Shown here in pieces: positions 26,435 to 26,626 of a stretch of DNA of 64,000 nt. The notes under the pieces were generated by a model. The model had not been told where the DNA came from. It ran no database searches and worked only from the letters and a program-made list of their open reading frames with translations. This DNA comes from Escherichia phage St11Ph5, in the sequence record NC_070873.1. One strand, written 5' to 3'. Within the stretch, counting starts at the first letter, position 1, and every line of letters begins with the position of its first letter. The position numbers and the translations under genes are program-made.

Positions 26435-26500
26435 TCCGGTGTAGGTACTAGTGTCGTGCACGGCATGAGTGTTCTGGTTCGAGTCCAGACGCCGGAACCA
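26435..26500 (+). ncRNA. tRNA-like element (acceptor + T-arm + CCA, non-canonical core)
   Basis: T-arm TCTGG-TTCGAGT-CCAGA, 3-prime CGCCGGA-A-CCA pairing with TCCGGTG at 26435; only about 31 nt between, rich in palindromes, no canonical D/anticodon arms found by hand. Confidence 0.35.
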
Positions 26501-26502
26501 AT

Positions 26503-26626
26503 TACCAGTTGCACGAGATGGCTTGACATGTTCAAGTTTGGACTAAGTGTGACACCGCTAGATTGGAGGGCTGCTGCGGTAAGCTATAGACTCCAACCGG
26601 GGGTTCGAATCCCTCACTGGTAACCA
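26503..26626 (+). ncRNA. tRNA-like element (acceptor + T-arm + CCA, extended core)
   Basis: T-arm GGGGG-TTCGAAT-CCCTC, 3-prime ACTGGTA-A-CCA pairing perfectly with TACCAGT at 26503, 2 nt after upstream element; about 121 nt, too long for a standard tRNA. Confidence 0.35.

Follow-up and report, generated by a model that had tools for sequence, protein, structure and literature searches.

Two independent tRNA-shaped RNAs with non-cloverleaf cores in the RNA cluster of the N4-like coliphage St11Ph5

What are the two adjacent, CCA-terminated RNAs that an N4-like coliphage encodes in a stretch almost free of open reading frames (ORFs)? We analyzed a window of 64,000 nucleotides (nt) from Escherichia phage St11Ph5 (NC_070873.1), a member of the genus Gamaleyavirus (Schitoviridae); positions below refer to this whole stretch. 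An ORF-poor region of about 1.9 kb (approximately 25509-27397) at the end of the rightward gene block houses element 1 (26435..26500) and element 2 (26503..26626), both on the plus strand. An initial annotation of the sequence had described both as modules with the ends of a transfer RNA (tRNA) and non-canonical cores, and had suggested minihelices, mimics resembling transfer-messenger RNA (tmRNA) or intron-bearing tRNAs. The two elements have defined structures, are conserved in other phages, behave as independent modules and possess cores unsuited to decoding. We consider it fairly probable that they are two independent, stable, tRNA-shaped small RNAs, mimics that are excised like tRNAs and occupy a host factor.

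tRNA ends joined to non-cloverleaf cores

Each element has a 7-bp acceptor stem, a 5-bp T stem with a UUCRANY loop, and a discriminator followed by CCA. Nevertheless, ARAGORN called neither of them when run on the whole 64 kb, and Rfam 15 gave nothing for either at the gathering score. A search of 26425-26830 alone with lax filters also returned no tRNA-clan or tmRNA match at E<=10. These negative results agree with the initial description of tRNA-like modules that end in CCA and have a core other than the cloverleaf. Strict T-arm motifs, with TTCGANT closed by five base pairs, are found at 25954, 26473, 26599, 26729 and 26796, all on the plus strand and within 850 nt, and there are no other fully paired TTCGANT T arms in the window. 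Elements 1 and 2 are not chance arrangements, given the clustering of these five motifs and the compensatory changes that preserve the pairings of the elements in other phages. In a few records, other groups' tRNAscan-SE annotations label element 1 as "tRNA-Undet" or "OTHER". The EC1-UPM and vECPW8 genome papers report no tRNA genes (PMC3853248, PMC11590954), and the KP8 genome paper leaves two of six tRNA calls unidentified (PMC6950046). The literature that we searched describes neither element and no tmRNA-like RNA from these groups of phages, and neither element has a copy in 5,426 complete E. coli genomes.

Element 1 is a 66-nt tRNA-like RNA that lacks a D arm, as judged from its sequence and an alignment of its variants. 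Its acceptor stem pairs 26435-26441 with 26490-26496 (UCCGGUG/CGCCGGA, 7 of 7 pairs including one G-U), its T arm spans 26473-26489 (UCUGG-UUCGAGU-CCAGA), and A73 (26497) and CCA (26498-26500) are encoded. Only 31 nt separate the 5' acceptor strand from the T arm, and all of these details are as first read from the sequence. The same annotation had held that neither a standard D arm nor a standard anticodon arm could be drawn. For the D arm this is correct: the 3-4 bp stem and GG loop of a canonical tRNA are missing, and a 9-nt connector, UAGGUACUA (26442-26450), takes their place. A stem-loop at the anticodon position can be drawn, however, at 26451-26466 (GUGUC-GUGCAC-GGCAU), and it covaries.

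Element 1 is 100% identical in phage N4. It occurs in Enquatrovirus, Gamaleyavirus, Kaypoctavirus (KP8 and VLCpiP4a) and Efbeekayvirus (cp20), and also in the 147-kb Stephanstirmvirinae myovirus 05F01. We aligned 11 distinct variants and scored three helices, namely the 7-bp acceptor stem, the 5-bp anticodon-position stem and the T stem. The helices were paired in 98.4% of cells, with compensatory changes at five pairs. None of 500 shuffles reached the observed covariation score, and pairing fell to 22-47% in controls with slid partners. The best-covarying helix is the anticodon-position stem, which takes the forms GUGUC/GGCAU, GUGCC/GGCAU, GCGUC/GGCGU, GCGUU/AACGU and ACCCU/AGGGU, and the connector UAGGUACUA is invariant among the 11 variants. 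In cp20 and 05F01, element 1 lies between tRNA-Tyr and tRNA-Ser/Asn with 6-nt spacers. This placement among canonical tRNAs indicates that element 1 acts as one more gene of a tRNA array.

The loop of the anticodon-position hairpin fails as a canonical anticodon loop, which has 7 nt, U33 and a purine at position 37. In the type shared by N4 and the window the loop is GUGCAC, of 6 nt, and RNAfold favours a 6-bp stem with a UGCA tetraloop. In IME11, KP8, cp20 and 05F01 the loop is GUGCACA, of 7 nt, with U33, GCA and C37. Element 1 is therefore probably not a decoder, given its 6-nt loop here and the C37 of the 7-nt loop in relatives. Its acceptor stem carries C3-G70 and not G3·U70. The loops at 26456-26461 (element 1, GUGCAC) and 26526-26531 (element 2, ACAUGU) are both self-complementary hexamers, and relatives of element 2 have GCAUGU or AUAUGU at this position. 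These sequences suggest possible kissing dimers, which are not separable from an extension of the stem in cis.

Element 2, a 124-nt class-II-tRNA-like RNA without an anticodon arm, begins 2 nt downstream of element 1. Its acceptor stem pairs 26503-26509 with 26616-26622 (UACCAGU/ACUGGUA, 7 of 7 pairs), its T arm lies at 26599-26615 (GGGGG-UUCGAAU-CCCUC), and A73 (26623) and CCA (26624-26626) are again encoded. A D-like stem (26512-26515 with 26547-26551) encloses an inserted hairpin (26520-26538) that contains CTTGA-CATGT-TCAAG at 26522-26536. A single-stranded linker (26552-26562) stands in place of the anticodon arm and leads into a long arm (26563-26596). The acceptor, T arm, A-CCA end, hairpin and 2-nt gap had all been read correctly from the sequence. 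Element 2 forms a four-way junction and element 1 has its covarying hairpin; both thus carry conserved arms beyond a minihelix, and that label does not apply.

BLAST detected element 2 in 41 phage records, and all ten distinct variants collected come from Gamaleyavirus- and Kaypoctavirus-type phages. Across these variants 99.7% of helix cells are paired, with compensatory changes at three acceptor pairs, one hairpin pair and one T-stem pair. One such change in the acceptor stem replaces UACCAGU/ACUGGUA with UACUGGU/ACCAGUA. The acceptor pairings of both elements are thus conserved with covariation in related phages, and the test that the initial annotation had set for its own refutation does not refute it; its observations hold, and its interpretation is partly borne out. 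About 80 nt of the element 2 core are invariant.

A covariance model of element 2 found its best further match in a 107-nt RNA (39 bits) at 12244-12350 of L158, an unrelated 54-kb phage contig. Class II tRNAs (Ser, Leu) came next with 25-31 bits, and class I tRNAs scored lower, about 20 bits. The ends of the L158 RNA are UUGUACG/CGUACAA-A-CCA. It has U8-G9 and a D arm of the normal class II type with 3 bp, CCA-GAGAGGCUGAA-UGG; UGACUCAGAUAAAG, which is single-stranded, then leads to a long hairpin and the T arm. ARAGORN calls no gene anywhere on L158. Read against this RNA, element 2 resolves into acceptor, U8-G9, D stem CAC(G)/(U)GUG, linker, long arm and T arm. Its D loop (GAGAU...UGGACUAA) then holds the inserted hairpin CUUGA-CAUGU-UCAAG, and a 13-nt linker, UGACACCGCUAGA, substitutes for the anticodon arm. 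Compared with a canonical D arm, the only candidate stem is the invariant CACG/UGUG, and the loop carries a 19-nt hairpin insertion. No element 2 variant has an anticodon arm, nor does the L158 relative. Scans of IMG/VR for remoter relatives of elements 1 and 2 gave only N4-like phages and chance matches. The two architectures, one D-armless and the other class II-like and anticodon-armless, are both new.

Could these RNAs instead be decaying or aberrant tRNA genes, relics of the larger arrays present in N4, KP8 and cp20? Element 1 would then be a tRNA-Cys(GCA)-type gene that has lost its D arm, still decoding in the relatives with a 7-nt loop and dead here, and element 2 would be what remains of a broken class II tRNA. 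The same locus has canonical tRNAs in relatives, mosaicism is high in this region, and there are degenerate tRNA-like calls nearby (Ala-cgc, Cys-aca, Ile-aat and "???"). The shortening of the loop from GUGCACA, with its U33 and GCA, to 6 nt in the window fits the same history, as does a D-armless Arg(UCU)-like gene of a Felix O1-like phage that keeps a canonical anticodon loop. However, pseudogenes are unlikely to hold three helices by compensatory change across five genera, and the connector, loop and CCA of element 1 have also been kept. The 6-nt-loop form is the same in N4 and the window phage despite their differing flanks. U73 is the major determinant for CysRS, and the C37 and A73 of element 1 misfit a Cys tRNA. 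Element 2, for its part, is without an anticodon arm in every variant, including the distant L158 relative. We regard decay as rather unlikely. The related proposal of intron-bearing tRNAs finds no support, as no removal of a segment restores a cloverleaf with a 7-nt anticodon loop.

Some observations do weigh against our interpretation of the elements as non-decoding mimics. The 7-nt loop of element 1 in relatives has U33 and GCA, and element 1 may retain a residual decoding role in those phages. Element 2 shows little diversity, being represented by two lineages and a single distant relative, and no variation at all is seen in the D-like stem or in either part of the long arm, which make up half of its six helices. 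These three helices therefore rest on thermodynamics only, and these parts of the fold are unproven. Finally, the flanking ORFs give no hint of a partner protein or target.

Comparison with tmRNA and the neighbouring tag-template RNA

The tRNA-like domain of tmRNA mimics a tRNA with a long variable arm and no anticodon arm. Element 2 shares this plan: it has the acceptor, the T arm and A73-CCA, lacks an anticodon arm, and places a long helix at the position of the variable arm. It differs from tmRNA in that G3·U70 is replaced by C3-G70, U3-G70 or U3-A70, and in its D-like stem with an inserted hairpin. A tmRNA has its tag frame joined in cis, or by helix P2 in two-piece forms, and neither element includes such a frame. 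When E. coli ssrA was compared with the region by BLAST, it matched only the tag frame of a neighbouring RNA (15/20), and the elements themselves were dissimilar. A supposed 10-nt match between element 2 and E. coli tmRNA, UUGGACUAAG, did not hold up, since a 7-mer is all that the real ssrA has in common with element 2, and BLAST detects no similarity. Thus, element 2 has the construction of a tmRNA tRNA-like domain, yet it fails as a member of that family on G3·U70, the tag in cis, Rfam and ssrA similarity. The term "tmRNA-like" in the initial annotation holds for the architecture of element 2 and not for family membership, and it does not extend to element 1. Another phage-encoded RNA invites comparison, the "TLD-only" tmRNA of mycobacteriophage DS6A (PMC4131195); element 2 lies near a tmRNA-style tag template.

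This tag-template RNA (26093..26352, plus strand) belongs to the same operon as elements 1 and 2 and had escaped the initial annotation. It opens with the motif GUUUUCG (26093-26099) and contains, 290 nt upstream of the two elements, a frame that runs from GCA to TAA at 26144-26176 and encodes ten codons, ANDDVVLMAA*. The frame reads AUAAAU-GCA AAC GAU GAU GUU GUU CUG AUG GCG GCG UAA and has no start codon. With the Rfam permuted-tmRNA model the RNA gives a weak match of 31 bits, below the gathering score of 47. A total of 723 records of enterobacterial phages contain homologues; N4-like phages, 45-kb siphoviruses, Ackermannviridae and Felix O1-like phages are among them. Among those sequenced and examined the frame is always ten codons long, with tags such as ANEEMYLAVA, ANDNTFLAVA, ANDNVFLAVA and ANEEAYLMVA, and with synonymous differences in Ala, Val, Asn and Phe codons. 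A search of IMG/VR with the 14-mer resume context of the tag RNA also yields genuine tmRNAs. The 5' end of the RNA is set 4-6 nt before the invariant GUUUUCG by a sigma-70-type promoter in siphoviruses and Felix-like phages. The tag RNA is unannotated, and we found no description of it in the literature.

No tRNA-like domain was found in the tag RNA, and ARAGORN calls no tmRNA among its loci save one. That permuted-tmRNA call, at the Felix-like locus L153, is a patchwork of distant tRNA pieces and we did not accept it. We also rejected CCAGG-UGGAAUC-CCUGG (26410) as a T arm and 3' end of the tag RNA, as its loop is not a T loop and its partner strand shows no covariation. The tag frame is followed by a pseudoknot in which loop CCGA pairs with UCGG, and this pairing covaries to CCAA/UUGG in 3HA14. 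The 3' part is a hairpin module of about 100 nt (26257-26352; ACAACAGGUAAGAGCAUU...AGUGCUCUUUCCGUUGUG, with a variable insert). Salmonella siphovirus seszw, though unrelated, has this module with 98% identity, and other phages have it once or twice with differing inserts. The spread of this module suggests recent horizontal movement of small RNA modules.

Felix-like phages also encode other aberrant tRNA-like RNAs. Directly behind the tag RNA in L198 lies a D-armless, Arg(UCU)-like RNA of 82 nt (10416-10497) whose anticodon loop is canonical, and L185 carries a 59-nt truncated Thr(UGU)-like RNA (1808-1866). At c2478-2572 of L153 there is a circularly permuted RNA that runs from a T arm through ACCCUUC-G-CCA, AACA and GAAGGGU-UA to a D arm.

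The 5' region of the tag RNA (26093-26120; GAUAGUUUUCG / GCGAY / UUUGCGG) is complementary in three blocks to nt 74-107 of E. coli tmRNA (ssrA, L025 144-506), the region around the resume codon. In several lineages the pairing has a free energy (dG) of about -28.5 kcal/mol, reached by 0/300 and 2/300 shuffles. The complementarity beats shuffles in BUCT541, DS8, L243 and the window and is not significant in Det7, 3HA14, L158, L195 and L167 with the seeds used. It may reflect antisense docking or merely homologous helices.

The proximity of the two kinds of RNA raises the question of whether a tmRNA is split here, with element 2 as its tRNA-like half entering stalled ribosomes together with SmpB and the tag RNA supplying ANDDVVLMAA. 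The layout of element 2 equals that of the tmRNA tRNA-like domain, and the operon provides a template with an authentic tmRNA resume context and no tRNA-like domain of its own. In KP8, element 2 lies immediately 3' of the tag RNA, and the L158 phage has both. However, with G3·U70 replaced element 2 has no alanine identity, and it resembles neither E. coli ssrA nor any Rfam tmRNA. The tag RNA is also found in more than 700 phage records of families in which no element 2 was found; IME11 has the tag RNA and is absent from the 41 element 2 records; and the position of the tag frame module relative to element 2 varies. No specific complementarity between element 2 and the tag RNA was found, although this duplex search is uninformative: RNAduplex comparisons of whole element 1 or 2 with the tag RNA treated both molecules as unfolded and gave shuffle fractions of 0.055-0.98. 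We judge a split of this kind improbable. It is likewise doubtful that the operon as a whole is a tmRNA system divided into a tag RNA and anticodon-less, CCA-ended mimics that would reprogram or block host trans-translation, together or docked on tmRNA. N4 has element 1 without the tag RNA and without element 2.

A cluster of autonomous RNA modules

The ORF-poor block is a chain of structured non-coding RNAs, including the tmRNA-style tag template. It is bounded on the 5' side by small genes that follow an ssb/RuvC-like block, and on the 3' side by three small genes and then the leftward virion RNA polymerase gene (28661-39466). Its order is tRNA-Ala(cgc), an 18-bp hairpin, the tag-template RNA, module C, element 1, element 2, a hairpin, element 3 and element 4. 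A strong intrinsic terminator on the plus strand (27350..27379) closes the ORF-free cluster. The 1.9 kb surrounding the elements is 97.5% identical in vB_EcoP_ShWW44.

The order of these modules is not fixed. In KP8 it is tag RNA, element 2, hairpin, module C and element 1, in contrast to module C, element 1, element 2 and hairpin in the window. Elements 1 and 2 are therefore separate, autonomous modules. Module C (26370..26434, plus strand) is a conserved block that lies 5' of element 1 in the window, N4 and KP8. It is missing upstream of element 1 in cp20 and 05F01, which rules it out as a part of element 1. Every module ends in ACCAAU(U), as do the canonical N4 tRNAs (trailers CCAAAUU/CCAAUU), and each has U at position -1.

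These shared ends could mean that the elements are processing punctuation only, letting RNase P and 3' nucleases free the neighbouring RNAs. Their placement among structured RNAs (module C, the long hairpin and elements 3 and 4) in an ORF-free, terminator-ended block would suit such a task, as would the ACCAAU(U) common to the module junctions. RNase P, however, needs the stack of acceptor and T stem and the elbow only, and this does not explain why the connector and loop of element 1 are so strictly conserved. The invariant core of element 2 likewise exceeds the needs of a cleavage signal, and the ordinary tRNAs on either side of element 1 in cp20 and 05F01 require no extra punctuation. A role in punctuation alone thus seems to us a poor prospect.

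The reordering also bears on whether the RNA features are incidental to a protein-coding gene. An ORF of 95 codons with a GTG start (26336-26623) is listed here, and some GenBank records annotate short hypothetical proteins in this region. But the ORF has no Pfam match, a 1-nt indel in element 1 between close relatives would break its frame, the modules are reordered in KP8, and substitutions track base-pairing and not codon positions. From the missing Pfam match, the indel and the reordering we conclude that ORF 26336-26623 is not a gene; a coding explanation of the region has almost no likelihood.

The other modules are as follows. The only tRNA called by ARAGORN in the 64 kb is the tRNA-Ala(cgc) at 25908-25979. 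It scores just 30 bits, on the Rfam tRNA-Sec model, and is without the alanine identity pair because it carries U3-A70. Among relatives it is present in some only (ECBP1, PD205 and ShWW44), inserted directly upstream of the tag-RNA hairpin. The 18-bp hairpin (25989-26093) covaries between phages. The long hairpin 3' of element 2 (26627..26696, plus strand) has a dG of -28.4 kcal/mol and z = -6.1, and an analogous long hairpin likewise lies 3' of element 2 in KP8.

In element 3 (26709..26822, plus strand) a single closing stem (GGUGGG/CCCACU-A-CC) surrounds two T-arm motifs, AGGG-UUCGAUU-CCCU and GGUGG-UUCGAUU-CCAUC. An unannotated interval between tRNA-Met and tRNA-Arg in the T4-like Dhakavirus VR5 (L006 2484-2601) is 79% similar to element 3 and has the closing stem CAUGGCG/CGCUAUG. 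Element 4 (26825..26930, plus strand) is a conserved, structured RNA of about 100 nt with the closing stem UUUGAGGUG/CACCUCAAA followed by CCA, and it has no Rfam match. In N4 (L007 2913-3012) its closing stem is changed on both strands, to GUGGGAUG/CAUCCCAC, with a nearly identical core. N4 also fills the slot after element 1 with a 119-nt RNA (L007 2623-2741; z = -6.0), in which a stem of about 24 bp closes a junction with the canonical T arm UUAGG-UUCGAAU-CCUAA. An HNH homing endonuclease gene lies just upstream of the RNA cluster in G7C (L012 592-1089), and the tRNA cluster of T4 contains segB. Such endonucleases may be behind the module shuffling at the RNA cluster.

Maturation, proposed role and known relatives

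In the maturation of E. coli tRNAs, RNase P recognizes the acceptor/T stack and the elbow, and RNase E cleaves AU-rich trailers 3' of CCA. Host RNase P and 3' processing nucleases would, by the same route, release elements 1 and 2 from a long transcript, and the released elements would persist as stable tRNA-like RNAs. Both keep the 7+5-bp stack of acceptor and T stem, the UUCGA(G/A)U loop, A73-CCA, the U at -1 and an AAUU trailer like that of the adjacent canonical phage tRNAs, which would be exactly the parts read by maturation and acceptor-end enzymes. They have lost the parts needed for decoding (the D arm and the 7-nt loop in element 1, the anticodon arm in element 2), and we therefore view them as tRNA mimics and not as adaptors. 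As has been proposed for other mimics, they probably occupy or divert a host factor that recognizes the tRNA elbow and acceptor end; the identity of that target is a guess.

How do such mimics compare with known RNAs? T4 RNA C and RNA D are small RNAs (139 and 119 nt) that are stable in T4 and lie at the end of its tRNA cluster. The closing stem of RNA C adjoins a canonical T arm (CCGGG-UUCGAAU-CCCGG) and its other arms are non-cloverleaf. The function of these RNAs has been unknown for decades (PMC3014915, PMC9697503). In the T4 sequence no CCA comes right after the closing stem of RNA C, and RNA D ends in ...GCGCACCA. BLAST of 26380-26900 matched T4-like phages only at element 3 and detected no homology to rnaC or rnaD. 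The covariance models found only ordinary tRNAs in the T4 locus (L005), the element 2 model only tRNA-Leu. Elements 1 and 2 share genomic location and architecture with RNA C, and RNAs C and D are the closest known kind.

Metazoan mitochondrial tRNAs that lack the D arm, among them tRNA-Ser(AGY) and those of nematodes and arachnids (PMC7609411, PMC6158502), resemble element 1 in having a short connector for the D arm and keeping the acceptor, a hairpin at the anticodon position and the T arm. Element 1 differs from them as a phage gene that faces the E. coli cytoplasm and standard EF-Tu, with its CCA encoded. A review of non-canonical tRNAs does not mention phage (PMC7609411). Bacterial Y RNAs (YrlA) and other tRNA mimics, some of them phage-encoded, are non-coding RNAs that likewise imitate the elbow and acceptor region of a tRNA and are acted on by tRNA enzymes (PMC4201824). 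YrlA differs in being tied to Ro60 through a Ro-binding helix; elements 1 and 2 have no Rfam match, and there is no Ro60-like gene among the flanking ORFs that were checked.

Phage tRNA clusters are usually read only as a supply of tRNAs for codon usage or anti-defence. In the window phage, a seemingly empty 1.9 kb holds conserved, covarying, tRNA-shaped RNAs that are probably unable to decode. They widen the family of RNAs C and D, orphans of T4 for 50 years, and are small molecules that can be tested. If the elements are decoys or competitors for processing enzymes, acceptor-end toxins or SmpB/EF-Tu, they would represent a new layer of phage-host conflict. The tag-template RNA next door makes phage interference with ribosome rescue directly testable.

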